A stretch of 64,000 nt of DNA, from positions 124,001 through 188,000 of the forward strand of contig CM102288.1 in the NCBI GenBank assembly GCA_046563655.1, read 5' to 3'. The notes below the pieces were generated by a model. That model did not search any database. It saw nothing but the letters and a program-made list of their open reading frames with translations, and was not told the origin of the DNA. Below are positions 1 through 63,894 of this stretch, in pieces. The stretch comes from Yuukianura sp. NJ FZ-2021. Its lineage: Eukaryota. Every line of letters begins with the position of its first letter. The stretch's first letter is position 1. The translations under genes were made by a program, and so were the position numbers.

Positions 1-219
1 AAAGTATCGCCAATTTTAGAATTTCTGAAGTTGTGAAAAGCACTAAATAATTTTTGTGATGAAGAAAGAAAGTGTGATTTTGGATCTGCGTGGATTTGAA
101 CTAGAGTAATCGTTAAGCGCCGAGGCAAAAGGTTAACATTCGTGTCCTACCGCTGGGTTAAAAGTTTTAACACAAAAGTTAAAAGTTTTAACCCAAAAGT
201 TAAAAGTGAGTTTTAAACG

Positions 220-7254: not shown

Positions 7255-8547
7255 GTCCAACGTCCCACCTACTGGTGACAACTACACGACGAGTGACATG
7301 GATTTCATCTCTCCATCCTCATTTATACAAACCTATTTTTGAATGTTCCTCTGATTTATGGTGACAACCATTTGTTCATTTGCAACGGAAAACAATTAAC
7401 CAATCAACATTTACGACCCATTTCCCCTGCAGTCCATGACGAAAGTGACCTCCATAGCTCCAAAGGTCAACGCAACTTTTCCAATGTAAAAACTTACCTG
7501 GTTCACACCCAACTTTAAAAAAAGTTTATCAAAAATGCTTCCTGTGCAAAGTGCAAAAGTATTTTCCAAATTGCAGGAAAGTTGCGTGAATCCCCCTCCA
7601 GTTTTGATGGGAATTTCTGTTTTTGCACTGCGCCTTTCCTCCTTGGATTGATTGACCGAGAAATTTGATTGACCTACAATTCACACGACACGGAAAAGAC
7701 AAGGGAAAAGTGGGAACCATAAAAAGAGGCATAACTAATTAGTCAATTAATTCAAGCCCTAGTAAAAAAAAAGATTTCCGTTAAGAAGAATTTTACATAG
7801 ACTTCTCTCGCCAGATCTCCGAGTACTTGAGCAGCATCACTCAAACGGATGCGGAATTTTGGGAATTGAAACGCCTCAGAAATGTCGGAAGGGAAGAGAA
7901 GATTTTGAGACGGTTTAAGAGTTGCGTTGCTAGCCCATTGCAGGAACTTGTTAAAATCTGCAATGCAAACCGCAATGCACCCTCAGCGTCTCCTGCCCTT
8001 TGACCTCCAACACTTTCCAAATACTTTTGCACGTTTTAAACTGAAGTAAGTTGGATCCTGATGTGGAGGTTTATAAGGCTCCTTGAGCGGAAGTAGTTAA
8101 TTGGAGGAAGGGAGACTGGAAAGGAACTTTCCCACAGGAAAACAACTTAAGACGGGCACTTAGACACTTCCACTCTGATTCATAATCTGATCAAACACAA
8201 AAGTTCACATCCAATCACCAAACAATCCTCAAATCCACAAAAACAACTTCTCACAACCAACACTCACGCCAACTTCAAAACATTTTCAACATTTTAAAAA
8301 CCTCCCAATTCTCCATTTCTTAGCACCAATTCCAAGGACTTTTGTATTCTTCAAAGGAATGATTCTCATATAAATACTTCTGGTTTTTAAATTTTAAAAG
8401 TACAAATAGGAAGTGTCAATGCTAGAAATGGAATGTGACAAGAGCTTTAGCGGAATACTGCAATCTTACAGATTGTGAATGTAGATTAACGAATGAAATC
8501 TAAGTGAAGATCTTGATTTGGATGTCATGATTCTGCTCAGAGTGAGG

Positions 8548-10069
8548 TCAAAGGTTGGTGAACTCTTGTCTGTTGGTGAGAACAGCCTTCATGAAGTCCC
8601 CTGTCAATTTCTCCATAAAGTGTCTTCCGTTGAGAACAAAGGGGGAGAGCCCTTCGAGGAATCCAAGATGTCCGCCGTACTTTGTCGTAATCAGAGTCAG
8701 TTTGGAGTTTGGAGCTTCAGCTTCCGCGTAAGGGAGATCTGGATGGAGATAATGCCTTGATTAACGAGGAAACGAATTAAAGTGAATGATGATTGGAACT
8801 CACATTGACCGTATTGAATTGGATCATCAGTTGCAGACAAAGCAAAGACTGGAACAGGAAGCAAATGAAGTTTCCCAGCAGAGGAGCACTCGGCGTAATA
8901 GTCCAAATCACACTGGAATCCATAGGATTGCGACGTTATCAAACGATCAAAGTCACGAACAGTTTTACACTTTTTCATCTTCTCTTCACAGTACCACGAC
9001 TCAGACCGCAAGATTCCGCCATAACTGAAAAGTACAACAAAAGCATTACTTTTTTAGTCAGATGAAATGTAAATAGAATGATGAATGAGTTACTATTTCA
9101 TTCTGCGTTTCAAATCAGCACAGATGGGGTAGTTGATTAGATATTTGTTCAAGGGTGTTTCGATTCCTCGACTTGCTCCTTCGAGACAAAATGCACAAGA
9201 GATCACTAGACCACCAAGCACAACGTCCTTCGCTGCTTCTCCAGTTTTGATCAAGTAGCGATTTAGCGTGATACCACCAAACGAAGTTCCCACAACCAGG
9301 AATCTGTCTTGAGGAAACTTCTTTTTCAAGTGGGCCAAGATGTCAGCCAAGTCATTAATCGTAGCAGCACTGTAGGACTTTGGAGTCTGTGAACAAAAAA
9401 TTGGGTGGATGAATATGTAGTTCTGTTAGATATGCTCTTACTCTAGAAGCCCATAAAGGTTAAGTTTAAAGTTTAAACTTACTGAAAGTGGAACTCCGCC
9501 AAGTCCCCGGTAGTTTAGAACAAAAACTTCTGCTCCTGCGTCTGTAATGGCCATTACGAGAGATTTGACATAAGACGTTTGAGATGAGCTCGTAAGTCCC
9601 GGTAGGAATAAAACCCGTAAAGTTTCACTGAAAAAAGAACAGTTTGGATTTATAGAGTTGAAGTACTCTGTTTTTAAAGAAGTGTAAAGCACCTGTTAGG
9701 AGAAGACGCCGGAAGGAAGTCGAGTCCTACTTGACCACCATCACGCAGCAGCACAATTTCACGTTGATACGGAAGTTTAAATGTTGGTGGAAAACGTCGA
9801 TTGATGGCAAAGATAGTTTGTAGAATTCCATTCCAGATGAAAGGTGCTGGCCAGTATCGCTGCTGACTTGTGTCCACATGCCTTACAAGGAACTTTCTCA
9901 TCTTCTCATTCCCCGTCCGAATCTTCGGTTTCTAAAATCCAAAAAACAAGGTCAATACAAAGGAACGTGTGACCTTGGACTATGAACTGCTTACCCGAAC
10001 AACATAAATGAGATAAAATGCAGTAACAGAAGCCAAGAATGACGAAAGGTACAATGCCCAGCCACTCAT
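8548..10069 (-). CDS. Alpha/beta hydrolase, ABHD1/2/3-like phospholipase
   Basis: N-terminal TM segment, DGGQVGLD, LPGLT, NYRGLGG, nucleophile motif GTSFGG, ATDDP, GGHLGFLEG. Confidence 0.88.
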
Positions 10070-37542: not shown

Positions 37543-38931
37543 ATGGTAAGTATGGAAGTTGACGAGGCGAACATACGTTCAACCAACGTGGAAAAAGCTC
37601 TAGAGGTGGATTATGATCTCGGCAACTTGATGGTTACAGATCCCAATGAGATTCAAATCAAAACGTTAAAGTAAGTTTACAAACATTTCATTTGTAACTG
37701 GTTCTACTAATTAGTCTGGGGTGACTGATTTAATAGTGTTTGATTTTGGAATTCCAGGCACAATCCTTCGGAATACTTAAAAACCCTAGCTCGTGACAAC
37801 ACACAGCTGCTTTTCAATAAGATTTGGACACTACCGTTTGAGCGTGTGGATGACGTCGTCATTACAAAATTGCCACCTTCCAAGTATGTACTTCCCAGGG
37901 AGAAACCAGTACCTAAAGCCAAACAACCCACAAAATGGGAACAGTATGCCAAGGACAAAGGAATCGTCAAAAGAAAGAAGACTAAACTTGTTTGGGATGA
38001 AATTGTTAACGTATGTTAAGAGAAGAATTTAAAATAGAGAAGTTATGGAAAGCTTTCTAATAATGATGCTTCGATGCTTGGTTCATTTCCAATATAGGCT
38101 TGGGTTCCACGGTTTGGCTACAAGCGAGCTGTAGCAGAACACGAGAAAGATTGGATTCTGGAAGTGCCGCAGAATGCTGACCCGTATGAAGATCAGTTTG
38201 AGAAAAAAACAGAAGCCAAATCAGAACGAGTTGCCAAGAATGAGCTGCAGCGTCTTAAAAACATTGCACGAACCAGGAAAGTTCAGCTACCGTCTACCGG
38301 TTTGGTACCCAAGGAACGTCAATCCAAAACTGAGGTGACCATATTTCACTTCCCACTAAACTTTCAAGTTTCCTCAACGGTTTTTTTTTCTGATTAGCTT
38401 CATCAAGCAATGCATGTGGCGAAGAAAGCGACTGCTTCCGTGGGGAAATTCCAGGAAAAACTTCCGAAGGAGAAACCTTTGAAGAAGACGGGGAAGAAAC
38501 GTCAGTTTGACTCTGTCACTCAAAGTGCTGATACCGAAAAATCCAAGAGCATGGGAGTCCTTGAGTCGATTTTAAATAAAAAGCCGAAGATCAACATTGA
38601 GAAAGCCGTAACGAAGGAATTACGGCGTGATCCAGTCGAGTAAGTTTTTTCTCTTATTCAAATTCCGCAAGTTTACGTTGAATGAGTAATCGAACCTTAT
38701 TTCCCCACAATTAGCACCGGAGATGATGACGGTGGCCATGGAAAAGGAACCAAACGAAGGCGCAACGTTTCTAAGAAACCTGTTCGTGGTGGAGGCGGTA
38801 AAGGCGGAGGTGGTAAATTTGGTGGTGGAGGCGGTAAATTCGGAGGCGGTAAAGGTGGAGCTCCCAAGAAAGGTGCATTTGCTAAAGGACCTTCATCTGC
38901 TCGCTCAAAACCGAAACGCAAGAAGCACTGA
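37543..38931 (+). CDS. RRS1: Ribosome biogenesis regulatory protein RRS1
   Basis: [74 protein letters not shown]. Start could instead be the in-frame ATG at 37552. Confidence 0.95.
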
Positions 38932-41272: not shown

Positions 41273-44200
41273 TCAACGACGTGCTGCACGGTTTTGACGT
41301 TGACTGGCCTGCGTATTGCCTCCACGTCGTCGCTTAGGAGGTGAAGGAGACTCTTCCAGCTCAAAATCCTCCACATCAGTATCGTCATCCGCATTTCCAG
41401 TTTGGTTAGGCCCAACATTATTTCGAAGTGGCGGGAACATTCTAAACAACACAAAAGTTTTTACTCATTTACTCAAAAACATCTCGGTTTCCTTAAAATT
41501 GAGGATGGACTTACTTGAGAACACTGGCAGTTGTCTTATCCTGCAACTCAGTAATGTCCAAAGGAGTAAACAAAAAGAACTGATGAGCTTTGAATCGAGA
41601 TGCATGGGAGATGAGTGCATTTTGACTGGCTTTGCGATTGAAGGGATCCATGAACACATCGAACTCATCCAACATGAAGAAGGGGCATTCCATGATCTGC
41701 CACATGGCCAAGATGTAGCAAATTGTGGCAAAAGAACGCTCTCCGCCTGACAAACCATTCGCATATTCCGTCAAGTAGTGTCTAAAACATAAAAAAATGT
41801 CAAAACCCATTCCTCATCAGATACTCAGGAAATGTGCTGGCAGTATTGCCAACATTCTCTCACTTGATAGTTCTAGTATCCTTGCAGTTCAACACATTCA
41901 TGGTCTTCTCATTGGCTTTTCCATCTGGACAGACAAAGTAGTACAGTTCCTTCTTCTCATGATCAATCAACAGACGACCCTAAAAATTTCAATTTCAAAA
42001 AACTTAAATCCAAACTTTTTTTCAAAAATTCACTTCCATTACACTGAAAAATGTACCTTGTATCCACGAGATGCAATGAGACACTGGAAAGAAGTGACTA
42101 GCACATTTCCAATGATTTGGATCATCGACTCGTAGTAATCCACATTGGCATTTGAGTAAGCTTGCATTAGCTACAAAAACAAAAATTAAGAATTTCACAA
42201 AGACAAAATAATTTTGAAATTATTAAAAAACTTACACGAAAAACTTCGCACCAACATTTGTACTCGGCCTTCAACTCTCCATATCGTTTCTTCGCCTTGG
42301 CAAGTTCAGCCATAATCGTTGCACGATCTCCTACAATTTTCTTGGCTTCTTTTACTCGATGCTCGTAGTCTTGCACTTCTTCACGAATTGAAGCTGGGGA
42401 CCTAAAAAATGAATCCAGTTTCCATGATTTCCAAACTCAATAATTCAAATGCGAAATTCGTTTTTCTTGCAGATCAGAATCTACTACTAATTTCACGGTG
42501 TATAAAACACAAAACACAGTTTTTGTGTTTATCAAAACCAATTTTCACATCATTTCGAGTCACAGAAAGTTACAAAAGTTAAAATCATCATTACCGAGCA
42601 GTTTCAATTCTTTCGCCAGCAGCTTCAGCTTCCTCAGTCTTTTCATCGACAGATTTTTGTAGGCGTTCCAATCTCGGCTTGATGGCGTCGCATCGTCCTT
42701 GAATATCACGCATTTTCTGTTTCACTAGACGCATTTTCTGTAATAAAAAACATTCCGTTTAGTCTTAAATTCTGAGATAAACTAAAGTCACATGCAACTT
42801 AACAAAATATGAATAGAATTCTTACATTTTCAATTTGTTTCAACTTGTCTTGGTAATTATCAATCAAATCCGTCAATGATGTAACTGTGGCTTGTGTAGA
42901 TTGTATATCTGCTTGAACTTCGTCCTTTCTCTCAGACAAAGACGCAAGTTTAGTTTTAATCTCTTCAAGAGCTTCTTCCGCTTCTTCTTTGATCCGAGTG
43001 TGGCGTTCCAGTAAAGCCTTGGCGTCATTCAGCTCTTCAATCTTCAAAAACAAATTCCAAAATGGCATTTTCTAAAACTGCACAAGCAAGCAGACCTAAA
43101 TCAGCTTTAAACTCTTACAAAACTGGAAAGATCCGGTTCTCTCATCTGCGTTTTGGAATGTGCGAGCAACTTCATCTTGATGTCAGTCAATTTCTTCTGA
43201 ACCGCACGCAGTGCTTCATCTTGTCCGTTGAACTCCTGGCGAACAATCGCTTCTTCGCGCTTTTTAGCTTCCAACTCCGGACCAAGTGCTTTCAACGCTT
43301 CTTCGTCTTCAATGATACTTTTCTTCAAATGTCTAAAAATCAAAGAATACATATTTTTAAAAATATAAAAAAACAAACCAATTCAATAGTATTGTACCTT
43401 AGTTGTAATGCTGAACTACACTTCAAGTAACTGTTGCGCTGCCTTTTAGGTTTTGCTTCTATGCGATATCGCGGATCAGGTGTAATTTGGAAAAATTCCA
43501 AAGAAAATCCAAATCTGCAATTCGCTGGAAATCTGTGCAAGAGAAGACAAAATTATAAAATGTCCTAATTTTGCACAACTGTAAAGCTACATTAGCTTAC
43601 CCTGGACTTCCTCTGTCTTTTAGAGTTTCACAAGCATCTTTGTTTGACTCAAAAAGAAGAATGCTCTCGATGAGACACGAGTCAATTAGAGTATTCAACA
43701 CAGCACAGTCTCCGTTCTCCACTTCAATCATGTCGTAAATAGTCGGAGCATTTGGAATCGTTGCCTTCTTTCTCGAAATATCATAGGCCTAAAACATTAT
43801 CCATCATAAAAAACACTTGAAGCAACGCCAACGACGAGCGATGAAAACAAAACGAATTTCAAAAGTTAAGCTTGTTGGAATCAAAACTTACTCTAGTAAA
43901 GGCAGACTTGTTACAGATCACTGCTGGACGACGACCACTTCCGCCGCCAATACTTTCGTTCAAACCTCCAAACATGGAATGTCGCCCACCTTGGAATGTT
44001 TGTTGGATCAGCTGATTCAACAAGCTCTGATCTGCACCATTCTCCACAACGAAATCAAACAACTGATTATTCAAAATCATTTCAATCAGCCGCACCCACT
44101 TTTCATTCTAAAAAAAAAGCATCATTTTCAATATTTCAATTGAGTTTCCCAAAGGTTAGCGTCGTTTTCGTACCTTGACAGTAAAACAGGCACCGAGCGG

Positions 44201-46722
44201 ACCACGCGGCATAACTTTGAACTTGTGCCGATTTGAATTAATTTTGAGCATGAGATCTTCCATTTGTCGTCCGAAATCTGCATAACGGTTCACTTTTGAC
44301 GTTTTACTCTCCAGATTTCGCACTTCATCTTTCATTCGAACTAAAAACGAACAAGATTCGAAATGTTTGGTGTTCTTAATCAAAGTTTGTTCATAAAAGA
44401 TGTAAAACTTACCAATTCTGGTTTTGTACTCCTTCTCTTTGGCTTTTAAGTTATTCAATTCCTCTCGTAGTGATTCTGTGCCACTGCTGAATTGCTGTTT
44501 CTCTGCCTTGAGTGTTTGGTACTCTTGTTCATATTCTTCCTTCTCTTGCTCTAATGCTGCCAACTTCTCTTCGTAGTCTGCCTTCGCCTGCTCCGCTGCC
44601 CGCTCCACACGAGCTTGAACATCCAACATTCTTGCCTCCACCTCAGCCACTGCGGCAGTAGCATTGCTAATGTGAGCCGTTGAAGCACGAATTCTGCCTT
44701 TGTTTTCATTTGCCTGTCGCGTCAACTGGCCCAACTCACGCTGGATGTCTTGCTCCTCCTTCCCAAGATTTCGTAGTTTCGCCTTCGCAGCCTCAACTTC
44801 CTCTCGAGATGTACTAACAAAATAGAAAATTAAGCATTAAATCCAGCACCTTAGACATGAATGTTCGCTTTTTAAGCTTACGCCGAATCCTCTAGTTCCT
44901 TTTTACTCTCCAGCACCGCTTTGAGAATGTCGTCAGTTTTATTTAGCAACTGTTCCTCCTTTTCCAGGTTTGTCTGAGCCTCATTTCGCTTCTCTTCCTC
45001 AACGATGACCAAAGACCATCGGTATTCAATCGTCAGATGCTCAATCTGCTCTTCCAATTTCTCAGCTTCATCCAATTTCAGCTTGAGAGCTTCGTATTTT
45101 TGTACTTCCATTTGTCGATCTTCTACAATCTAAAAATAAATGGCATGTTTAGATAAGCGCTAAAATATGTATGCAGGAAGTCTTTGATTCCTCACCTCCC
45201 GGGTTCTGTCTAAATTCTGTTCAGTATCTTCCATGTTACTCTTCGTTTCTTTCAAGATCCGCTCAAACTGAGCCAGAGAAGAGCCTTCGAAGAAGAACTT
45301 GTACCTGAAACAAGGAAAAACAATGAAAATGACTGTGTATTTGTTGAAAGAAGAAGTTCTTACTTGTCTCCTGGGTCCTTTGTCTTCAAAAAACTACGAG
45401 CCGCTTCTTGATTGAGCACTGCCACAGGATTGTCCACCATGATTCCAAGGTTGAATAAGATAAAGTCCAGCTCCGACCGACGCAAAACTCTGAACTTAGT
45501 GTTCAATCCAGTACAGATTTTGTAAGTCGATGGGCCTCGAACATCCAGAACACGCTGAATGGTGATTTCCTTTCCATACTTGTCGTCACTCAAGACTCCA
45601 TGATTCAAAACAGTCACCTCAATCTTGGCAAACTCCTTACCAGTTTTGACCAGCTCTGATAAAAAAAAAGTTAACAGGAAATGTAATTCGAAATTCGGTT
45701 TTAATAATCTGAAAACATGGGATCAACGCTCACCAGAAATTGATTTTGTACGTGAAGTGGTGTTGGCCCTTGCTCCGAATCCAACGACAATTCCAGACAA
45801 TATTGCACTCTTTCCGGATCCATTTTCACCAGTGATGAAGTTGAGATTAGAGTTCCACTCTTTTTCAAAGTATTCATGACACATGAAATTGTATAGGCGG
45901 ACTCTTTTGATAATCCCAGAGCAAGGTTCAACTTGTTGATTTCCCTGTCACAAAGTTAGACCAAGTTAATCGTATGTAAGTAAGTGACGACCAATGTTTT
46001 TTCATTAAAACTTCAAAAAATTCACTTACGCTCAAACGCTGTTGGTAGTAAAGGAGTGCTTTGTGTGGCCGAGGCCCTCCAGACTGCTTTCGAGTTTTGG
46101 ATTGTTGCGACTGCGGACGTGAGGTTTCATCCGGATTGGACTTTCGTAACTTTTCTTTCAAAAGCAACCGCTGTCGTCGCATCTTCTCTTTCGGTGACAT
46201 CGTTTCCTCAGTATCTCCATGTGATTCTTGAAAATCCTCATTATCACCCGCATCTAAATTTAATCATCGATATTGGATTCTAATACGCAAGTTAGCACAT
46301 ACTTAGACACAACAAAGCAAATGGTTACCTGAATCAGTTGATTCAGAAGAGGCAATTGTTTGCTCAAACCTAACGGAATCCCCTCGCTTCACAGTGCTGT
46401 GATTTCGAGTCCAGTTATCCGAAACTTCTGGCGTTTTTCGTCGTTTCGGAGCTGGTAAAACGTCATCTTCCTCGTCATTTTCCTTCGTAGCAGTTGGAGA
46501 AAGAAGAGGCTGGAGCTGACGCTTTTGAGGTTGCGGAATGACTGGTCGAGTGCTCTGTTTGGCTTTCTGTTCATGTTGCTGCTGTCTGTCTCGACTGTTT
46601 GGCCTTCCTCGCTCAGTTAAGATCCCACTAGTATCCGTATCATTCACCGAATCTTCAAGCCGCTGATTCGACCTGTGAAAGTCAGATACGTCTCTCACGC
46701 GTCGGGACAACCGGAAAGCCAT
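41273..46722 (-). CDS. SMC6: Structural maintenance of chromosomes protein 6, full length
   Basis: NFMCH, Walker A GENGSGKS, hinge PRGPLG, signature LSGGERS, Walker B FFMLDEFDVFMD, FTP. Confidence 0.93.
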
Positions 46723-47587: not shown

Positions 47588-48826
47588 ATGGAGCCCGTTG
47601 TTCAACCTGAAGCAGAAATGCCGGTAGGAAGTCCGTCCAGGTCAATTGAGCATCAGGAACTGTTGGATTACGCGGTATGCGCCAATTCTCTTTGATGTAT
47701 AATTTTTAAACAATCTTTCATGTTGAATTATTTGGCATTACAGAAGGAACGCTATCAAAGTGTCCTGGATAGAACGATCAAGAACTTGAAAGTGGCATTT
47801 GTTCAGGCCGGTACGGATTTACATATCTTGGAACAATTGGGGACTCTTTGGACGGAGGAACTTGACCAAGCCTTAGAAGTCATGGGGCACAAAGGTTACC
47901 TACTACTTTGTCCACACTATTTCCAGTTTTCTTATTCCAGGAATATTGTTTCGTTCTGTTTTAGTAGGTTCAGGCCTGAACGAAAGTGGTAGTCAGCTGT
48001 ACATACCACAGGCGGACGGTAATGATGACGATGATGATGACCACTATTTGGAATTTGTTGCGGCAAGTGACGATCAAGGATTAGACGTCATGGACCAACA
48101 AGGTTGCCTAGTTTCTCTGACTTCTAGTTGTTCAGTCGATTGCAAGTATCTTTTTAATATTTATTAGCTGACATACCGCAAGCCGATGGTAATACTGCGG
48201 ATGACGGTGACGATGACGGAGATTCGGACTATGTGCCACCCAATGACGACTCTTCAGGAGACGAGTCAGATGACCTTCAGACGGTGACGAGTAGCAAATA
48301 CCTGCCTTACACAATGACTCGTTCTCGTCCTAGTATTATCAGGAAGGAAAGTGCTAGTGCTGCTACACACAGCCGAGCGGAGAGAAAGGAATTCGCACTG
48401 GCTGACCAACTTGATGTTGACGTAGATGGATTTGGGAACTATCTCGGCCTTGAAGTAAATCAAGCAAACTTAAGTTTTCCCCTAAGTTTATCCAGTTTTA
48501 GCTAAATGTTGTAAGCAATTAGCAATGTCGGTTCGTTTTTGGTTTTCAGAAACCAATCAACGCCGACGACGATCAGACTGACGAGGAAGACGACGAGGAC
48601 TGGAATACAGACTGCAAAATGTTTTGTGTCATCAAGAAGGTAATGCTAAAACTATTTGTATGTTCTGGACGGAATGTGCTGGCAGCAGTTTGGTCGACAT
48701 TTTTGAATGTTGGTACAGCTCGCAAGGCAGCAACACACTTGGAGGATGGAACTGGTTGATGGAATTTTCCACATCAATGGGATCGACCACTTCTTCAGGA
48801 AGGCGTACTTGGAAGCCCAGTGGTAA
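47588..48826 (+). CDS. Divergent TFIIA large (alpha/beta) subunit homolog (6 exons)
   Basis: Alpha part RYQSVLDRTIKNLKVAFVQAGTDLHILEQLGTLW; acidic linker with two QADG; beta part PINADDD...FCVIKK|LARQQHTWRMELVDGIFHINGIDHFFRKAYLEAQW*. Confidence 0.85.
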
Positions 48827-49249
48827 CTGTGTCTACGGATCTGTTTCTCCATGATACCGCATCACACTCTTCTTATAAATTAATTCAGGCTTCAGATTTT
48901 CTCATTTTAGAATCATTTCCAACTATTTCAATTAATTTCTCTTGTTACTTTCTTCATTTACATTAAAGATTCTTATAAATTCTTGTGTCTCCCTTCCACC
49001 GTCTCCTTTCCACCAAAATTTAATGTCGCTATGCCACCAATCTTGTTGAACTCTGGTGCGTTGCCTAAGAAAAAGCAGTTGTTTTCCACCAAAGCCGAAA
49101 TGCGTCTTTGGATAACCGATTTTTAGGTAAGTTGTTCTCCTTGTCATTTCTCAATCAAAACTGAAAGTTTCTCTACTTTAATTTTGTGTTTTTGATCATA
49201 GGTGGACATTGCTAAAGTAAACTGAGGCTGGAATACTAGAACTCTGAGA

Positions 49250-50955
49250 ATGCCGCCTCCGAAGAAAGCACGTCGCTCGAAGAAGGGAAAAGGGAAGCGT
49301 AAAGGGCGGAAGAAGAAGAAGAAGGGAAAGAAGGGGCCTGGGAAAGCCCCACCGCCACTTCATCTTCTGTCCGAATTGTACCGGAAACTGATCGATGCTG
49401 TCCGAACGCTATACGAAATGCGTGTGGCAGCACGTAAAAAACGAGTTGAAGGATGGTTTCTCACAAAGGAAATGGCGGAACTCAAGAGTGACAATGAGCT
49501 CTACCACGACTACCTCAACGACAACATCGAAGACCTCCAGAATGCCATAGACAAGTTCAAGTGAGAATCACAACTTTCTAACAAAATTTACAATTCTAAG
49601 TGATTGTTTTGAAAACTTTGAATTTTTGTTCTTCTAGGAGATTGATCCAAGAAATTAAAGACGCAATTGCGAAAGCTGTTGCAGCGAGACTTGCGAAGTT
49701 ACAGAAGCAGTTGGACGATTACGAGAGAAGAACTGCTGACTTAGAGAAGGAGCTTGCAGACATTCGTTCACAATTACTCGAATTTGAATCTCTCATGTAA
49801 AAAGTTTGACCTTTGACCTCCTCATGATTCACTTTCAGCACAAATGTCAACTGGGCTAACTTTTGTTTTCATTTTGAAGGGTGGAGTTAGCTCGTCTAAT
49901 GGCCAGAATCCAGGAACTGCTGGCGGAAATTGAAGCTGCCAAATTCGCCGCAGAACTCAAGATTCGTCATCTGACTAACCAGTTCCTGGAGTGAGTTGAC
50001 TAAAAACTTGAAAATGTTTAGTTGAAAGATGAATCATCCAGTTTAAAATGGCACTTAATTTCAGGGAGCGTGGACGACTGCACAATCACTTGGAAATGCA
50101 ATTGTTTGAGCTCATCAAGAACTGCCGCACCTATCTTATGCCAATTCTGTGGAACTTTATGCAAAAACTCATCACGGACAATCGTTGTCTTCGATGGAGA
50201 CTTGGTCGAACGGATGAAAAAAACATTGTACACGACAGTTTCCAACTTTTAAACAAAACTTATGTTTAACGTACTATTTTTTAATTCCTTAGATGCTGGT
50301 CGGCAAGAGAGAAGAAATGATGCGCCGTCGCAAGATCCTGACTCTTGAAAAGCCATACTGGGACATTCAGTGGGCATTTTTTGTATGAACTAATCTCCTA
50401 ATGAGTACTTTCAGTATTATCCAGTTCAAAATGTTAAAAAGTTTTTTGGTTTAGAAATTGGGTGAGATGGACACTGCTCTGAAGAAGAAGAAGCGTCCAG
50501 CATTCCTCCTGGACAACAAGTACTCTGGGTTTGCTGACTTGGCAACTACAGACGCTGGAGAAGCTGCGACGATCGACGCCGTCTCACGCCTCATTCCCTC
50601 CACGCAACTCGGCAAAGACTTTAACGTTTTTCTCATTCAAAGACTCACGGCAGCCAAAGAAGCACAAGAAAGACACGAACGAGAGAAGAAGCGGGAAGAG
50701 AAGCGATTTCTCAAGAAACTCCTGAGTACTGTCCAAGCCATGAAGGATCGAAACCAATCTTTTACTTCAGGTAATTCAATTAATTATAATGTATTAATGT
50801 ATTATATTAATTTAATTAATTGTACAGGAAAAGACATGGGCGTGATTGTAGGAGAAGACGAAGATGACTGGGAAGATATGCATGAGCATCCAGGCTACGG
50901 CTATGGTGAAGACTATGGATTACATTATGGCGAAGACTATTTTGTAGACGAATAA
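49250..50955 (+). CDS. CCDC166/DUF4515-like coiled-coil protein
   Basis: Lys-rich N-terminus; LKSDNELYHDYL...NAI and LMARIQELLAEI...LTNQFLE resemble CCDC166 (from memory). Confidence 0.55.
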
Positions 50956-51082
50956 GACTAACACTAAACTTCACAATTTTACAAATATAAGTGAAGCCAT
51001 CTAAAGGTCAAAGGTCACTTTTCCTAATTTTGAATCAGAAACGATTACCATACTTTTGCATTTTAGCAATGAATTCCTAAGC

Positions 51083-52609
51083 TTATTTTTCAGTTTTTAG
51101 TTCTGAGAGAACTTTTGTAAAGCGATCTTTGAGAGTTTCGATTGAAACTGCTTTCGTTTCTGTTGAAGATGAATTGATCAATTGGTCCAAAACAACTGCA
51201 AGTTGTGGATTGGGCATAGTTTTGATACAGTTCAGTGCTTGTTCAAAAGTTGCAAGTTGATCTTTCCTTTTGAGAAGTGCAGACAACATGTCCAGTTGTA
51301 TGTCTTTCATTGCACGAAGACGCTGTTCCAGTTCCTGGACAGATTCTTCATGTTTTTTCAACTTCGAACGAGTCCACCTTGTTAAAAATAGAAATTAAAA
51401 CTAAAAAGTACAAATTATAATTCTAAACGTGATTAATTTACACTGTGGATGTTGTTTTAGCTAGTCCGGGCGGCAAAATGTCAAAGTTCAACTCTTCTTC
51501 GTCCAAACGAACCGACTTGAAGGCTGGAGACGGTGTTATTTTGAACAAATCCAAAGTATAGGCCACCTTGCAGCCTTTTGGCAAGCTACAAAGGTCAAAG
51601 GTCACACTTTTCATTTCCGCAGTGTTCAAAAATTGAAGGAATTTTGAAATTCCAAATATTAAAATATTTACTTGTTTTTCTCAGCTAGGTTCGGAAAGGC
51701 CTCGTGTTGTGTTTTGAACAGAAGAATGCGATGGATGTTTGTGTTTTCGAGAAGGAATCGTGTGACGATCTTGTCTTTGTCGTTGATTGAAAGCACATCC
51801 AGCACAGTGACCAGGTCAGGCTCCTTGGTGCTACACAGATCCATCTCCAGGGGCTGCAATTTCACGGTTTTTAGCATTTCCAAAACTAAAAAGAAAAAGT
51901 TGACCTGTGTCCTCACCTTGGAATCGAAGTTGATGACCCAGACAGCGGGATGTTGAGCGTAGTCAGCCGGCCAACCACCGATGTCATCAATCAAGTTCTC
52001 TAAAACTGTGCGATCTTCGTGAGAGTGAACCAGGAAGGTATAGATGACTGGTCGCAGAATGTATTCCACGAGGGGTTTCCATTCGCCCTGAAAGGTCAAG
52101 AGGTCAAGGTCAAATTGCGGAGTTAAGATAAGTTTTAGCAGAATTACTTTCACTGAGAAGCAGGATCCGATTGGTCCTTTGGGTGGCCTTGAGAAGGGAG
52201 TTGATGAAATGGAGATCATGAGTGCTTGTAGCTCCCTGGAGTAAACTCCCATCACATCTTCCCTGACCTCATTCATTTGAAGGAGGTCATTCTGGTGCTG
52301 GAGGTCACGGTGGACTTGGTTCCTCAACAAGTTCCAGGCACGGATCCTTCCAGTCAGGGTTTCATACTTGTTGAACAGGAGTTGATACTGGATCTTCTGA
52401 AGCAGAATGTTGCGTTGACCTCTGAGATTGAGAAGATGCCGCACGTCTTTCAAGTCATCTCGTTCCGTTCTACTGCAGAAGTTCTGGACATCCTGGACAA
52501 AGTCCCTGGAATTGTTGTCTTCCTCCTCGGAAGTGAAGCGAAGCAGGTCAAGCACGGTGTCCGTAGTGACCTCTCCTTGACCTTCTCTTTTCTTCGAATC
52601 CTTAGACAT
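51083..52609 (-). CDS. Hinge-only SMC6 paralog, about 417 aa; exons 52609-52148, 52087-51917, 51853-51672, 51585-51442, 51377-51083
   Basis: PPKGPIGSCFSVK|GEWKPLVEYIL...HRILLF...LPKGCKVAYTLDLFKITPSP aligns by eye with the hinge of the neighbouring SMC6; no Walker motifs. The last acceptor is an unusual AAG. Confidence 0.8.
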
Positions 52610-55715: not shown

Positions 55716-57057
55716 CTACCTTCGATCTCCTTTGCTAAACAGTTTGAGTTGATGTTTAATCTTCTTGCGATTGCCAAAAGTGAAGCTGGAATTGGATCCG
55801 TATGAGGTTGATGAACTTCCCGAGGAATTGGAGCCTTTGCGCTTATTTTTGTTGTCCTTCTTGTCCTTTGTTGGGGTTGTTTGTGTCGTGGCACTTCCGG
55901 AACTGTGCGAACTCTCGTCGTCATCTCCGTATGGGAACCCTGCTCTTCGGAAATCTTCCGGTGAAAGGTCAATGTACAAAGACAGCATCGAAATCTTGTT
56001 ACCCAAGGTCAGTTCATCTTTCAGCGTCTTTGGCTCTCTGTGGCACCAAGCGATCACCATCATCAGAGTTATCATCAACAGAAAAGTCATTACTGCAATG
56101 ACCTACAAAACCAAAAATTGTAACCTTTGACCCCATTTTTTTCATTTTGAACTTACACAAGTGATGAGCTTAATGTATTGAAAGTCACAAATTTTTCGGG
56201 CAGCTAGTCGGCTCTGAAGGGCCGCACTTTGACCTTGCACAATTGCTCGAATTTGACACGAGTGAAGCGTTTCGGAAACAGTATCGGGATTTTGGAGTCC
56301 CGTTAGCTCAATGGCTTCTCGTCGAATCAAATTGGCCATTTGAATGTAATTTTCGTTACTTTGGCGCCACGATCGAATGTAAAAGGAAGTTCCAACCACA
56401 AGCAGAACCGCTGCCACCACATAAGTAATCAGGCACTGCCAAAGGTCAAAGGTCAACTTTTTCAGAAAAAGTTGAAAATTTTCAACTTTTTGGTTGAAAT
56501 TTTGAGTGTCTTACCCACTTGTCCTCATGGAACCATCTACTTTTGACACAGAGGTGAATGAAAAGTTGGACACTTAGCCCAAGTGCCAAAATGGAAACGA
56601 CGACAATGAACAGTACTTGCATGGAAGTCTCTCTGTACGACAACTGACTGTACTCCGGGTGACTTAAAACTGTGACCGGAAGGTCAGACGACTTGATGGC
56701 CTTCATGAACATGTCATCTGCTAAATTCCGCCTGACCTGACCTGGATTCTGCATCAAGATGAGGTCATCTTTGATCACGAGTGCTTGCGACACGTTACGC
56801 AGTTCAGAACTCAAGTGCTTGTTCCAGTCGTAGTCACGCAGAAAGGCAGAGAGGCTTAGAGTAAACAGCGGAATCAGGCTGAGCTAAAAAAACGAAAAGG
56901 TCAAAGGTCACATTGTTTTAAATCCCCTCTTTTCTCAATTTTTCTGAAAACTTACAATTACGATTGCTTGCAAAACGAGAGATGTAACAAAGTAGGCCTT
57001 TTTTCGTACACGTTCTTCTTTAACCACAATTGACATAAGGCTCTTGGAGGACTCCAT
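55716..57057 (-). CDS. Uncharacterised protein with about 4 TM segments
   Basis: Four exons with canonical splice sites, four hydrophobic segments, Ser/Lys-rich tail. Confidence 0.6.
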
Positions 57058-57478: not shown

Positions 57479-60400
57479 CTACAAATACTCCACGATATCA
57501 CATTTAATAAGAATGTTTGGGCATGAAAGCATCATGTTTGATTTCTTGGAAGGAGCGGAAGTTGAGGAGGGCGGGGCAAGTGGAGTTGTTTTTTCAGTGA
57601 GTAGTTTTTGGAAAATGGGGAGCAGAGTTACGTCCAAGTTAATTTCAGAGAAGAGCGTAGTTGTGTCCAGTTTCCTGGGAACAGACACAGATCGATTGTG
57701 CTTGGACAGGAGATGTGCTGGTTGTGGAATGTTTTCACTCGAAGCGTAGTAGAAGGGTTTGGACCCGGGAGGGGGTGGTGGGGCAGGGTGGGACGTCAAA
57801 TTGGTGGAGGATTGGCTCACATCAATAGCTGTGTCTGCTTGATCTGTAAAAGATCAAGTACTCGTCAAAATTGACCCATATAGGTTAAAATGTCTCAAAA
57901 AATTGACCCATATGGGCTAATCCGTCAAAACTCTAGTTTGAACAACTTACCTTCTCCCTGGAAGAAGATTTCTTCCCCGAATTCTGTCAGTTTCAAATTG
58001 GTTGACCCGAGCCGTCCACCGCCGATTCCGCTCGTGGGACTTTTGAGTTTCCGAACACTCGTTTTGGAAGGTCTCCGCTCCAGAATATTGTTTTGGATGT
58101 GGCTGGAGTTTTCTTTTTGCAAAATGTTCCAGATTTCTCCAGAAGTTTGAAGAGAGGGGCGATGGATGACCTCTTGACTTCCGGTTTCACTCGGGACTCC
58201 CCGCTGACTCGGAGTGGTCGACGGAATGCTGCCGCCTCTCTGCCGCAGTTGAGTGTACAGTTCCACGAGGGAGTCTGAGTGAGGCGGTTTCTCTGGCAGC
58301 AGAGACTTCTCCTCAACTGTGATTGGCTCTAAGTCTTGCTTGAGGTCACCCACGAACAGAATGGATTTGGCAGAGTTCGTGACCCCAGTCGTGGTTGTGA
58401 GTGGGGTCCACTGAGGCTGTTGACCTGACGACACGATCGGCAGACTCGGCAGGGTCAACGCTGCTATCCCCGGGTACTTTGGCACCGATTTTTTCCTAAA
58501 AAATTAAAACATTACCCCATATAGGCTAATTCCGAAGTTAGCCCGTTTGGGTTAATTGTAAAGTTAGCCCATTACCTGGGTGTCATCGTGGACTCATCCT
58601 CCATGTATTCATCTTCTCCCTCCGCCCCATCCGAGTTGAGTGAGTAGAGGGAGCTCACATCAGTGTCTTCTTTCTTAAGTAAATCTGACTTCGGAATCAT
58701 AAGATGCATCGCATCTTCCAGGATTTCCACAGCTTCATCTCCCAGGATCCTGGCCAATGCCTGTTCAAATTGTGCCAGGTCAAGGTCAAAGGTCAAAGGT
58801 CAATTACATTTACAGTTTACCTGAATTTCCGTGTCAATTTCTCTAATTTGTTTTCTGTACTTGGAGTTGATGCCTTTGGCGGACTTGAGTTCATGTTCAT
58901 ACAAACTGGATTGTGACGGGCGACGACCACCAGTGCTACTGCTGAACGTCGGTTTGATTGTCGTGCGCAGACGCTTCTCTATCGTTCCCTTTGGATTCCG
59001 CTTTAGTTCTATCACCTCAAAAATTCAAAGTTCAAAAAATTACATCTTCTCAGAATTTTGGAAAATGTTGGTCCAGAATTTGAATGTTTGTGTTTTGGTT
59101 GGGAATTGGTTACTTTTGGTAGAAAGACTAAGCAGAGAGTGGCCGTTGTGCAGAAGATGATAAATATTGAGATGATGACAAAAGAGACGTCTTGTTTGTC
59201 AGACAGAACGTGCGACAGAGGAGCACCGATGATGCACATCATCACTGAATTGTACACGCTCATTCCGATGTACTTCGAGTCATTCAAAGCTGGAATTGAT
59301 ACATGACGAGTTTCCCAAGCCAGGAAACATCCAAACATCTTTTTCAAAAAAAAATCAAAAAGATATAAAGTTTTTTGGAATTTGGAAAGATCAAAGGTCA
59401 AAGTGTCACCATGAGTAGTCCCTTGTAGGCGTAGATGCAACCCACAAAGATAGTCATGTAGTTGCTCTTGCAGTACTCAATTTGCGGCACAATTTCCACG
59501 TCGTCATTTACAGGGTCAAGCTACAAAAAAGGTCAAAGGTCAAATAATTGGTTCGGTTCCATTTAAAAGTTTTTGAAACTAGTTGCTGAACTTATTTTTA
59601 ATAAGTCGTAGTTTAATATTAGCCAGGCTGCAACTAACCGATAATATGACCTTACATGTTTCGCCATATTTTTGATTTCACGGTAAAACGGGTCCAGCAA
59701 TTGCCAAGTAATCATGATTGCGAAATCGATTACTAGAAGAATCCCAACGACAATGAACAGTTGCATGTCTTTGATGACCTGTAAAGGTCAAAGGTCAAAA
59801 TTTAGGGATTGACCTGAATTGTAATTATGGCAAGATTTGTTGACCTTTTTGTTGAGTTTGACATTTGTAAAGATGGAGTGAACCCTCCATGTTTTGCTGA
59901 ACATTGACCCAAAGGCTAATGTGAACCCAGCCATAAGTACCCATGCCCTTCCAGTGCACAAGTACGGAAAAGCTTCCACGGATGTCAAATCGGAATCCAA
60001 ACCCAGCAGAATAACAGACGCATAAGTAAAAATGCACCCAATGATGATTAGGTTGTTCAAGTAGGGCGAACTCATCTTGATGTACCTGTAAAAAGAATAT
60101 GGGTTAATCAACAGGTCAATAAAAAAGGTTTACGGGTCAATACCTTTGGTTTCGAAATTTGATGTTCACAATTAGAAAAAATCCGGCGCCGATTATCCCG
60201 ACGGTCGCAACAAAAGCGAAACCAATGAACAGGGTCAAGTTAATCCGTGTATGTTCATGAATCTAAATTGGAATATAATTATAACCATTTAATTATAAAA
60301 ATTGACCCATGAGAGGTCAAAAGGTCAAATGTTGACCTGAATAGTGCGATCTTTTGGCGGTGTTTTGCTTTCCCATGTGATTCTGTTGGGATACTTTGTG

Positions 60401-62128
60401 AGATTCATCGTTCCAGCGACACTGTCGTATTGCCCAACTTCCACCTCAACGTTAACTGTGTTGAACGTCTGAAATTGTTTGATGAGCACTGACCCCTTAC
60501 GACCATTGTCCTGAAATTGCACAGGACCCTACCACAAGGCAAAATTTTAAAACGTCATCTTCCAATTTTCAAAATTTCAAAAATTTTCAAAATTCTAGTA
60601 AATTTGAATATCTTACTGTTACTCCCATGAAACTCGTGGCTGCCAAGCTCTCCAGAATTGCATTTTCCCAGGATTCATCGTGATAGCGAAATGTGCTTAG
60701 CAAGTATTTTTTGTTTTTGGCATTCCCGCCTTTGTAAAAATTAGATGCGTTGTGAAGGGCTAAAGCCAACGCCCAAATTCCATCGTAAGCGTAACCGTGG
60801 AACCTTGACTTTTGCTCCATCGACACAACCTCGTAAATGTAGTTGTAGTCAGAAGGTTTCTGAAAAGTAAAATTTCATCAAAAATTTTCAAAATTCATTT
60901 TTCCATTTCATTTTTTTTTTCAAATATTACCCGCCCACTGATGGTAACTTCATCAGAAGTACTTAAGGGCAAGACATCCATGAGCAGAGCTCCGCGAAGG
61001 GCTACTTCAATATTTTGCAAACTGCAGTTCGTATCTTTCACAGTCCACCACTTCAAACAAATTTTACGTAAATTCAGGGAAATTTTACAAACTCAAAATT
61101 TTAAAATTTTAAATATTTTTTGCTAAAAAACTTACTGCCGGATCATACGCTGCCACGATGAGCCACTGGTATCGTTTTCCATACATTTTGTTATGGTAAG
61201 CCTAAGAAAAGCTCAAGGTCAACAAAAATCTTTGAACTTTGACCCCAAAACAAAGTTTTTAGTAAAAACTAACCTGGCAAAATATTTTTCTGGCCCAAGT
61301 TTCATTAAAATTTCCAAGGATGATGCGAACTCCAGCATCTTTGAGCTTGTTCATTTGCGCTGTCACTTCGTCTGCAAAACTGAGGACTTCCACTACTTCA
61401 AAATCTTTGTTAACTTTGGATTCCAGGGATTTGATAAGTTCATTGTGAGCAAGTGAGTACAGCGGCATGTTTTGATACAAAGTTCCCACACGCTTCCAAT
61501 TGAACAGTCGCATCAGTTCGATTCGTGGATCGTTAAACTCGTTTTCACTCGGAACGATTCGGAAAAGATTCGGAAAGTTGTTTTTCCGGTACATGGGATG
61601 GGTGTCGCCATACGACAACTGAACGACATTCCAGCGTTTGCTGGCTTTGGCTATTGGATCCGTCACTGTCGTACAGACGTCGCCAAAGAGAAGGATTTTG
61701 AGTGGCGGTCGATGGATCATGTCGAAAAAAGCTTTCATTCCATATCCAGTGTCACACTGCATACAAATTTAAAAAGTTCAAAAAACTAGACTTGAATTTA
61801 AATTTACATTGACCCATTGACCCGTCATCAAATCAGGGTCAACGGGTCAATCTGTTTTTGACCCAGATCTTACCCGGGTATCGTTCCAGAGGATGTCCAG
61901 TTCATATTCTGGCAAAATGCTTGAATTTTTGTTGATGTCGTAGAGAGCCTGTTTCACTGCCGGTAGAACCCCTTTTCCCACTCTCCACCGACTCGCATTT
62001 TCCGACAACGGAAAAAACCCGGCAATATTCAGTTTCGGTTTTTGCTTTCCTCCAGTCAAGGTCAATGCTCCCAGGAGCATCGTTAGCACAGCTACTGAAA
62101 AGACGGTTCCACTCCTCCAGCACCCCAT
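57479..62128 (-). CDS. GABA-B-R2: Metabotropic GABA-B receptor subunit 2
   Basis: Venus-flytrap domain ([30 protein letters not shown]), 7TM ([46 protein letters not shown]), ends CDIVEYL*. Confidence 0.93.
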
Positions 62129-62829
62129 TGCTACCCACCAACACCCCGCCCTAAAGGCAAAGGTCAAAGGTCACTGACCTCTACACTCTGCACAAGAGCA
62201 GTTCCGAACAGTGTGAAGAACTGGATCAAACTGGATACTTTGGAGGTGGAAAGTGAAAGTGTTTTTGAAAATCAATAGAGCATGGGGCCTGGAAGGAGGC
62301 GCGGTTTTGGAACTCTGGAAGGAAGCTGCTCCTGGATTTCCAACTTCCATATCTTCACTTTCCGAAAAGTTTCACTTTCAGTACGCAGGTTGAAATGATA
62401 TTGATTCAGTGTATTGTTGTTCCAGTAACTTGGTTTAAGCTTCACCCCCCCCCCCCCTTCCCTTGAAAGGGGCGGGGCTTAAACCAATTAAGGAAGACAA
62501 AGGAAGCTCCTAGCGGCAACGGAACTTTCACCTTTCAAACTTTCACTTTTGCTTTTCCACTTTTCCAAGCCGAAACTGGACAAAGTTAGAAAAGCTTCTT
62601 AAGAAAAATTTCGGAAAAGCCTAATTTTATCCCCCAAAATTCCATTACTTTTTACCAATTTTACCTTGCTAACCTTACAACACTTTTTACCAGGATTGGC
62701 AAAAATGTCTGTTAGAAAAAAAATCCTGAAATTTTTTTTTGAAGCACGGACGTTCAAGGAGAAAGTTTTTTGGTTGATTTTATTCAAGTCTTTGGGAAAA
62801 TAATTTCAAGAGTAAAAACATAAAAGTTC

Positions 62830-63894
62830 TCAGCGCATAGAGACTTGAGACTGCGTTTTTTGAAGTTCCTTTTGTTGAGTTATTGAATGCTTAGACTTGT
62901 CTTTGATGCTGGCCCTTGAAGGGGTGGGGGTCAAGGGGTCCTTGACCTCTAGGGGCTGACTAAGGTCAGCCTTGGGGTCAGTCCAGTTGAGGGGCACTTC
63001 CACTCTGTTCATTTTGCCTGAGGAAGTCCACCAATGTCGTTTGGTTATGGGGGAATCGGCGATGGGGCGAGCATAGTAAGGGAGGGGGTCAAGGGACGAC
63101 AGAGGGGGGTACTTCCCACCCCCAACAATCTCCATCTCCTTGTACAGCATCTCTGCTGAATCCTCTTCTTCTACGAAGAAAGCAACCACGAAAGCCATGA
63201 ACAAGTGAAGGAAAGTGTTGAAGATGCCCAGTATCTAAAAAGAAGTTAAGGGGTCATTGACCTCTGGGTCACACTAAAGTTGACCTTAAATCAGGGTCAA
63301 TGACTTACAATGACGAATATTTTGGTCCAGGACTCTTGACATGCGTAGGGCCTTCCCGTGAAGAGTTGGATGAAGCCTGATTCCAACTGTGGGAATTTGC
63401 AGGGGTGCCAAGGGACCCTGTCTGAAGGGACCCCTTCATACAGGATTTCAAAATGGCGGTTGTACTGCTCGTTGTTGTGGGCGAAGGACGTCGTGTAGCA
63501 AGCAGTTCCCACCAGAATAACAATGCAACCGAAGAGGTGAAAGTACATGTTCTAGAAGTGAAAAACTAAAAAGGTCAAAGGTCAAGGTCAAAGGTCATTG
63601 AGTTCTTACGATGTTCTTCCGGTAGTAGAGGTATGAGAGGAGGAAGCAGAGGTAGCAGTGAATGAGTGCCACTATGAACATGAATCCCCAAATGGCCAAC
63701 GCTGCTACTTGCGTGTCGTACTCTCGTTCCAGTGCTCGTTCAATGATAATTTGTTCTTCAAAGTTCAACCATTTGGACAACTTGTACTTTTTGTGTAAAA
63801 GCGCCAAGCGATCAGCGCTGTACACGTTTTTATTCCAGCGATAGTCGGCATTTGCACATAAAATTCCGAACAAGAGACAGACGATTTCGATTAT
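62830..63894 (-). CDS. Uncharacterised multi-pass membrane protein, 5' end outside the window
   Basis: Three spliced exons with hydrophobic segments and canonical splice sites. Confidence 0.6.

Follow-up and report, generated by a model that had tools for sequence, protein, structure and literature searches.

Within a 64,000-nucleotide stretch of the genome of Yuukianura sp. NJ FZ-2021 (contig CM102288.1, positions 124,001 to 188,000; "the window" below means this whole stretch), the minus strand at 51083-52609 carries a gene for a predicted protein that consists of an SMC6-type hinge between two short coiled-coil flanks and lacks the ATPase heads of SMC proteins. We consider it very probable that this SMC6 paralogue is a real gene, under selection, derived from SMC6 and headless. 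As an overall explanation we favour, with a probability of about 0.5, a conserved arthropod headless 'mini-SMC6' that would pair with the SMC5 hinge and modulate the SMC5/6 complex. To our knowledge, SMC5/6 is the least understood of the eukaryotic SMC complexes; its hinge has specialised interfaces and binds single-stranded DNA (ssDNA), an activity whose role is debated.

Gene structure and derivation from SMC6

The gene model is a prediction from the DNA sequence, spliced by GT/AG boundaries and reading frame. It runs on the minus strand from an ATG at 52609-52607 to a TAA at 51085-51083 through five exons and 417 codons with no internal stop, and an in-frame stop is found 11 codons 5′ of the ATG. 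All four introns (60, 63, 86 and 64 nt; phases 0, 0, 2 and 2) start with GT. Three of them end in AG after a pyrimidine; intron 4 ends in a weak AAG, which is the sole in-frame join and whose position is kept in an orthologue, where the acceptor is a normal TAG. Because introns 1 and 2 are open and in frame, a raw open reading frame (ORF) of 324 codons spans three of the exons. A 31-nt version of intron 2 was ruled out, being too short and breaking the frame. The parts of the gene are listed here together with their counterparts in the neighbouring SMC6 and in L001 and L002, two metagenome contigs with orthologous sequence that are described in the next section.

Exon 1, 52148..52609, minus strand: 154 codons, from the start codon through the N-terminal coiled-coil flank into the hinge, ending at the conserved PKGPIG..CFSVK
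Intron 1, 52088..52147, minus strand: 60 nt, phase 0, GT..AG; degenerate TGACCT-repeat before the acceptor; matches SMC6 intron 44173-44108 and intron 1 of L001 and L002
Exon 2, 51917..52087, minus strand: hinge subdomain I, in 57 codons; SMC6 counterpart in the alignment, exon 44107-43892
Intron 2, 51854..51916, minus strand: 63 nt, phase 0, GT..AG; 1-2 residues from SMC6 intron 43891-43789; L001 and L002 also have an intron at the corresponding site
Exon 3, 51672..51853, minus strand: 182 nt, hinge linker and subdomain II
Intron 3, 51586..51671, minus strand: 86 nt, phase 2, GT..AG; ends in the genome-typical intron-end motif TGACCTTTGACCT; same column and phase as SMC6 intron 43600-43533 and the L002 intron
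Exon 4, 51442..51585, minus strand: 144 nt, final hinge beta-strands and exit to the C-terminal coil
Intron 4, 51378..51441, minus strand: 64 nt, phase 2, GT..AAG; same phase as SMC6 intron 43397-43333
Exon 5, 51083..51377, minus strand: 97 codons, C-terminal coiled-coil flank and stop; aligned with frog SMC6 along its outgoing arm
Full-length SMC6, 41499..46722, minus strand: start codon at 46722; N-terminal head with Walker A near 45917-45770; C-terminal head at 41813-41499
SMC6 hinge exons, the parental segment of the duplicate, 43398..44340, minus strand: exons 44340-44174, 44107-43892, 43788-43601 and 43532-43398

The encoded protein comprises ~140 residues of N-terminal helix, a ~160-residue SMC6-type hinge and ~117 residues of C-terminal helix; helices were also predicted in both flanks by a low-confidence structural model. 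The long antiparallel arms of a canonical SMC protein, several hundred residues per side, are thus not present. Likewise, patterns for Walker A (G..G.GK[ST]) and for the signature motif ([LF]SGG) gave no match in the paralogue, in its L002 orthologue or in the related protein P0005, while both matched frog SMC6 (P0010, from Spea bombifrons) as a control. A Walker B pattern was also silent on these three sequences, but it missed the frog control too and is uninformative. The Pfam SMC_N model did not match the paralogue. When minus-strand ORF pieces of SMC6 and the whole frog SMC6 were used as queries, no SMC head-like exons were found elsewhere in the 64-kb window, and only the paralogue hinge matched.

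The neighbouring SMC6 aligns with frog SMC6 at its N-terminal head (45917-45363), hinge (44311-43982) and C-terminal head (41753-41499); its Walker A exon is readable, and Pfam SMC_N matches at 41511-41813. Its start codon at 46722 and the paralogue stop at 51083 are 4,361 bp apart on the same strand. For comparison with the paralogue, the middle part of SMC6 was spliced by hand. Blastp aligned the two with 73 identities in 280 positions (26%; 92.4 bits, E 9e-25 in the pairwise search space), the hinge-proximal coiled-coil segments of the paralogue being collinear with the SMC6 arms, and tblastn of the paralogue against the whole window found SMC6 at E 9e-9.

The paralogue introns follow residues 154, 211, 271 and 319 (phases 0, 0, 2 and 2), and those of the compared SMC6 segment follow residues 189, 261, 323 and 368 in the same phases. 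Thus all four paralogue introns correspond to SMC6 introns, and four of the five SMC6 introns in this segment are matched. Introns 1 and 3 occupy the same alignment columns as their SMC6 counterparts; for intron 2 the two sites lie 1-2 residues apart within an ambiguous, poorly aligned stretch; and intron 4 coincides with the SMC6 site when the 3 codons by which the exons differ in length are taken into account. The extra SMC6 intron (44412-44341, phase 1) lies in the incoming coil and is not found in the paralogue. Since positions and phases are shared, the copy must have arisen by segmental duplication at the DNA level, and a retrocopy origin is ruled out. As read from these alignments, the duplication was partial and took in the SMC6 exons that encode coil, hinge and coil.

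An earlier note, made from the sequence alone, had placed a spliced ORF of ~417 aa at this locus. Its coordinates proved exact, and the frame is indeed uninterrupted. The four motif pairs that it quoted from the paralogue and SMC6 are all present in the translations, and its description of a gene heavily diverged yet still open agrees with 26% identity to SMC6 and a lack of internal stops. It was also right about the missing Walker A and signature motifs, for which the control was positive (the Walker B pattern says nothing either way), and about a distance of 4.4 kb to a full-length SMC6, the length of that neighbour being borne out by the frog matches to both heads and the hinge. It had counted three shared introns, in phases 0, 0 and 2; the sharing and the phases hold, and the count has to be raised to four (0, 0, 2, 2).

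Ahead of its Walker A exon, SMC6 has two exons (46722-45950, minus strand) that encode ~230 residues of low-complexity charged sequence. This N-terminal extension is unusually long compared with frog SMC6, which matches from its residue 49 onwards.

Orthologues and selection

When 1.84 billion cluster representatives were searched exhaustively with phmmer (E ≤ 0.001), nine proteins were returned. P0006 and P0007 (1689 and 1507 aa, with 14 matched stretches each) are internally repetitive; they were judged spurious and dropped. Six of the remaining seven, namely P0001, P0002, P0003, P0005, P0008 and, marginally, P0009, score higher to the paralogue than to the window SMC6. The seventh, P0004, scores higher to SMC6 (66.6 versus 52.8 bits). 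P0004 is a 219-aa read-through hinge fragment from a 2416-bp ENA contig, with an intron at the first position as in the paralogue; it probably represents the hinge of SMC6 from a different arthropod, or else one more hinge paralogue.

P0001-P0003 are equivalents of exon 1 (37-43% identity), in which the intron begins directly after the conserved hinge-entry motif. Aligned with paralogue exon 1 (alignment A2, four sequences), they give 29 invariant columns, including Y123 and PKGPIG, and the homology starts shortly after the first Met of each sequence. P0005, a 403-aa coil-hinge-coil protein, is intron-free, fills a 1,313-bp contig and stops ~145 residues past the hinge; it appears to be a transcript-derived sequence. 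Word-index searches with a further alignment, A4, found P0005 and P0009 only among proteins of near size, and among longer proteins one annotated SMC6 (the frog protein P0010) and P0011. The same kind of search with the read-through translation of the paralogue gave no match among proteins of 171-546 aa.

Genomic orthologues came from a pattern scan of metagenome contigs based on alignment A2, in which 171 stretches matched and two, L001 and L002, were confirmed. L001 (1,039 bp) contains exon 1, intron 1 and exon 2 of an orthologue, with the same intron 1. L002, a 9,556-bp environmental contig, holds a complete orthologue of 437 aa (exons 1563-2126, 2242-2427, 2503-2684, 2769-2915 and 2992-3226). 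Its introns are all GT-AG, and their four positions and phases equal those of the window paralogue. By blastp the two proteins align along their whole length (157 of 363 positions identical, 43%; 283 bits). Identity is 57.6% over 66 aligned residues of exon 2, 52.5% over 59 aa of exon 3, where the exon lengths are equal (182 nt) and a 14-residue motif around ILLF is fully kept, and 58.6% over 29 aa of exon 4; exon 5 is collinear within the single blastp alignment. No SMC head exons were found on this 9.5-kb contig.

The orthologue in L002 is preceded by a cuticle-protein-like ORF (95-544, plus strand; Chitin_bind_4 at 23.9 bits, just below the cut-off of 25) and followed by a convergent DOCK-family gene (5839-9496, minus strand; DHR-2 lobes A and B, TPR_DOCK). 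Because of these neighbours the contig looks arthropod. The neighbours differ from those in the window, and the SMC6-adjacent position is therefore not conserved in L002.

To estimate selection, the window paralogue and its L002 orthologue were compared by the Nei-Gojobori method over 396 codon pairs. Synonymous sites are saturated, with a proportion of synonymous differences (pS) of 0.72 and a synonymous rate (dS) of ~2.4 or more. The nonsynonymous rate (dN), 0.60 over all pairs, drops to 0.34 in the hinge and reaches 0.82-0.85 in the two flanks. Amino-acid identity follows the same pattern (57.5% in the hinge, 29-31% in the flanks), and identity at codon positions 1, 2 and 3 is 52%, 64% and 40%. 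A constrained hinge with faster flanks, intact frames and kept splice sites form the pattern of a working protein and, as far as coding sequence can tell, exclude a decaying relic. By the same comparison, the reading frame of the copy has stayed intact, and its hinge has remained under constraint, in lineages that diverged deeply.

These results bear out the suggestion of the earlier note that the gene is an old, DNA-level partial duplicate kept by selection: introns are shared with SMC6, an intact orthologue exists at 43% identity, and a hinge dN of 0.34 against saturated dS is far from the dN/dS near 1 that the note had named as a counter-sign (the ratios being rough upper bounds). The note had also asked whether head exons elsewhere might make the gene full length; none turned up within the 64-kb window or the 9.5 kb of L002.

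Hinge identity and proposed mode of action

We assigned the hinge to the SMC6 type by sequence and by fold. A phmmer search of the window's own translation against the PDB had the Schizosaccharomyces pombe Smc6 hinge (5mg8_B, E 2e-5) as its sole match, and a family profile searched against all PDB chains (E ≤ 0.01) found six distinct sequences, all six of them SMC6. DMS3 and SMCHD1 chains appeared neither in this profile search nor among the Foldseek matches listed. The Pfam SMC_hinge model (PF06470) had no match at E ≤ 1 in the paralogue, P0003, P0004, P0005 or the L002 exons; its silence on the paralogue means nothing, because it misses the bona fide frog SMC6 hinge as well.

An AlphaFold2 model of P0005 (alignment A4) reached a mean predicted local distance difference test score (pLDDT) of 66, with hinge blocks at ~75-95, long N- and C-terminal helices and a disordered insert specific to P0005. 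Foldseek with this model gave 41 PDB matches at E ≤ 0.001. Smc6 hinge chains came first (5mg8_B and 8i4x_B, E 1.7e-9), followed by Smc5 and then by cohesin, condensin and prokaryotic SMC hinges. A Foldseek check for the SMC6 hinge, as the earlier note had proposed, thus points to Smc6, for a family member rather than for the window protein itself. The model of the paralogue read-through translation (312 aa, including 41 intron-encoded residues and missing exon 4) had a mean pLDDT of 49.7 and was too poor to use. As a lead only, an SMC-hinge cluster of the Protein Atlas scored 0.85 for the window translation and 0.94 for the P0005 hinge.

Residues F528, G551, P552 and R706 of S. pombe Smc6 are described as a 'hub' that anchors the incoming coil to the hinge and affects ssDNA binding (PMC5290277). 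Counting along the 5mg8_B alignment, with residues M532, L536, I539 and P549 named in that paper as anchors, we found F528 opposite paralogue Y123 and G551-P552 opposite G145-P146. Y123, G145 and P146 are invariant in all four exon-1 sequences. The position of R706 is apparently K or R in the family, in a tentative alignment.

These observations suggest how the protein might act; the roles put forward in the earlier note, a decoy or regulator of SMC5/6 or a repurposed chromatin factor, are likewise conjectural. Its two flanking helices are of similar length and would double back on each other in the way common to all SMC proteins, giving a short antiparallel arm. The hinge, having retained the SMC6 hub (the aromatic anchor and the PKGP turn), would pair with the hinge of SMC5, with which SMC6 normally associates. 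Such a heterodimer would be unable to bind ATP, the kleisin Nse4 or the loader Nse5/6. Two outcomes can be envisaged. By titrating SMC5 away from SMC6, the paralogue could damp the activity of SMC5/6 as an endogenous factor; alternatively, it could give rise to an ATPase-free hinge module, perhaps ssDNA-binding, with a task of its own. Engineered headless fragments of moss SMC6 are reported to have still bound a fragment of the SMC5 hinge while binding to NSE5/NSE6 was lost (PMC13087482), and the example of SMCL-1 indicates that a truncated SMC paralogue can be a negative regulator (PMC5373644). SMC5-hinge pairing is the simplest reading because hub residues are kept and the headless moss fragments bind the SMC5 hinge fragment; as the mode of action of the paralogue we give it slightly short of an even chance.

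Several points weigh against a conserved mini-SMC6 that acts through SMC5. With only 26% identity to the neighbouring SMC6, partner specificity of the paralogue may have drifted. A glycine in the matching strand of the window SMC6 and P0005 is alanine in the paralogue and L002, and this position might, though uncertainly, belong to the last, glycine-bearing strands of the Smc6 South interface. Saturation of dS makes the dN/dS values rough, upper-bound-like estimates, and the last acceptor of the gene is the weak AAG. Translated ORFs of L002 match the window only at the paralogue and, weakly, at the SMC6 hinge, with no other synteny. Finally, a tree of seven hinge sequences, containing few SMC6 sequences and no SMC5 outgroup, supports the pairing of the window paralogue with L002 only (93/95) and does not resolve P0005, P0004 and SMC6, so that P0005 is assigned to the headless clade by its architecture and blast scores alone.

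The main alternative is an autonomous hinge scaffold, in which the hinge would form homodimers without SMC5, like the hinges of DMS3 and SMCHD1, and the arms and hinge ring would offer a platform for non-SMC partners, making the protein a repurposed chromatin or DNA-binding factor. Its layout and size, close to those of the plant protein DMS3 (417 versus 420 aa), fit such a role, as does the deep divergence from SMC6. The conserved motifs that exon 1 has of its own and that are not seen in SMC6 (the 29 invariant columns of A2) could mark new partner surfaces. On the other hand, the hinges of SMC5 and SMC6 are specialised for pairing with each other through asymmetric interfaces (PMC5290277), all PDB matches of the family profile are SMC6, with DMS3 and SMCHD1 absent from them, and the SMC6 hub residues are kept. 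A two-copy complex prediction for P0005 residues 66-262 scored 0.00; controls were not run, and it weighs neither way. We regard the scaffold as unlikely, yet as the alternative to be taken most seriously.

Far less probable is that the gene is a fragment of a larger one, with head exons beyond the examined DNA or splicing to a neighbouring gene. A candidate acceptor (TTTAG) 14 nt 5′ of the ATG would permit an upstream exon, and the window ends 11.4 kb upstream of the paralogue. However, neither the 64 kb nor the 9.5 kb of L002, where the cuticle-protein-like ORF and the DOCK gene flank the orthologue, contains other SMC head similarity; stop codons stand at equivalent places in the paralogue and L002, and P0005 likewise ends ~145 aa past its hinge; homology of the four exon-1 sequences starts shortly after the first Met; and a gene on the opposite strand sits between the paralogue and SMC6.

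Finally, a non-functional relic, a partial SMC6 duplicate open by chance, is strongly disfavoured: the weak last acceptor would fit it, and nine short, mostly untranscribed SMC1 fragments are recorded as scattered in the Daphnia pulex genome by a meiosis-gene inventory that also lists SMC6A and SMC6B, 165 kb apart (PMC2680839), but a neutral frame of 417 codons would not remain open in a copy so old (26% identity to its parent), orthologues are intact at 43% identity with their splice sites kept, and the hinge (57.5% identity, dN 0.34) is far better preserved than the coils and third codon positions.

If the mini-SMC6 reading is carried further, arthropods, at least planktonic crustacean-like lineages, might possess in the ancient headless SMC6 and SMC5 an ATPase-free 'half-complex', a natural antagonist or alternative form of SMC5/6. 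We put this forward as a doubtful extension. If true, such a half-complex would tune recombination, repair or the restriction of extrachromosomal DNA, for example in the germ line or in modified meiosis, with its headless subunit as the first SMC regulator in animals to consist of a hinge only.

Window context and comparison with known SMC proteins

The window is animal DNA with short introns. Besides SMC6 and its paralogue, we noted a homologue of the ribosome biogenesis factor RRS1 (37744-38397, plus strand; 5.6e-16) and a class C G-protein-coupled receptor (59012-62170, minus strand; ANF_receptor 7.8e-19, 7tm_3 6e-18). The gene between SMC6 and the paralogue (47696-50955, plus strand) has several exons with highly acidic and lysine-rich stretches; at E ≤ 0.01, Pfam gave nothing for it besides a weak, Apis_Csd-like low-complexity match. 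It is convergent with the paralogue and ends at 50955, 127 nt from the paralogue stop.

A 13-mer, AGGTCAAAGGTCA (TGACCTTTGACCT on the opposite strand), occurs in 24 copies at ≤ 1 mismatch in the window, against 0.18 expected from shuffles; examples are at 51592-51604, 51005-51017, 56443-56455, 56898-56910, 59530-59542, 59785-59797, 62161-62173 and 63572-63597. Eight of 16 inspected copies read TGACCT... on the transcribed strand and are followed by a pyrimidine run that ends in AG within 14 nt. The 13-mer therefore looks like a genome-typical motif of intron 3′ ends (branch-point or polypyrimidine) rather than, or besides, a DR1 nuclear-receptor site. It is also present in intron 1 of the L001 orthologue, and none was found in L002. 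At 51000-51082 (minus strand), the intron-end motif and a TTAG lie 66-80 nt 3′ of the paralogue stop, with GT dinucleotides ~50 nt upstream of the motif; this may be a short intron in the 3′ untranslated region or an alternative last exon.

Compared with SMC6 itself, the nu-SMC of the SMC5/6 complex, the paralogue shares hinge sequence and fold, hub residues, four intron positions with their phases and collinear hinge-proximal coils. It differs in having neither ATPase heads nor Walker A and signature motifs, in arms of ~100-140 residues instead of several hundred, and in its 26% identity. Without heads, it would have no ATP-driven cycle and no kleisin or Nse5/6 site. The moss SMC6 fragments have the same coil-hinge-coil layout as the paralogue; they are laboratory constructs and not natural genes (PMC13087482).

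The earlier note knew of no described animal equivalent, and in our full-text literature searches no account of an SMC6 derivative reduced to the hinge came up either, the SMC6A and SMC6B sequences of D. pulex not having been compared; the consulted portion of a survey of SMC evolution makes no mention of one (bioRxiv 10.1101/2024.01.07.573240). The nearest animal precedents are SMCL-1 and SMCHD1. SMCHD1 of mammals, a protein of ~2000 aa with a GHKL ATPase, uses its SMC hinge for dimerisation and chromatin association. It resembles the paralogue as a non-canonical animal protein that uses an SMC hinge, but is neither SMC6-derived nor headless. DMS3 belongs to the SMCHD1-type hinge lineage.

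SMCL-1 of Caenorhabditis is described as a lineage-restricted, truncated SMC-4 paralogue that binds canonical SMC subunits and negatively regulates condensin (PMC5373644). It offers a precedent for the regulatory logic proposed here. In architecture it is the mirror image of our protein, keeping a degenerate head while lacking hinge and coils, and it acts on condensin, not SMC5/6. The paralogue would be a candidate endogenous regulator of SMC5/6 and hence the counterpart of the heads-only SMCL-1 of condensin. As a natural protein made of the SMC6 hinge and proximal arm, it could also provide a separation-of-function tool, the hinge without the motor.

The closest architectural parallel is DMS3 of the Arabidopsis DDR complex, given as a protein of 420 aa without an ABC head, with a central hinge, two helices of ~50 residues and hinge homodimerisation (PMC6718625). 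Compared by description, both proteins are headless and carry their SMC hinge centrally, between short coiled-coil flanks that run antiparallel. DMS3 comes from plants and homodimerises, whereas the paralogue family is animal and SMC6-derived, with SMC6 chains as the only PDB matches of its profile, and its headless hinge architecture has an origin independent of DMS3. Collectively, our data support the view that the paralogue belongs to the SMC family and has the headless hinge layout known in plants, here independently derived from SMC6 in animals. The DMS3-type headless hinge would thus have been invented a second time, independently, in this family.

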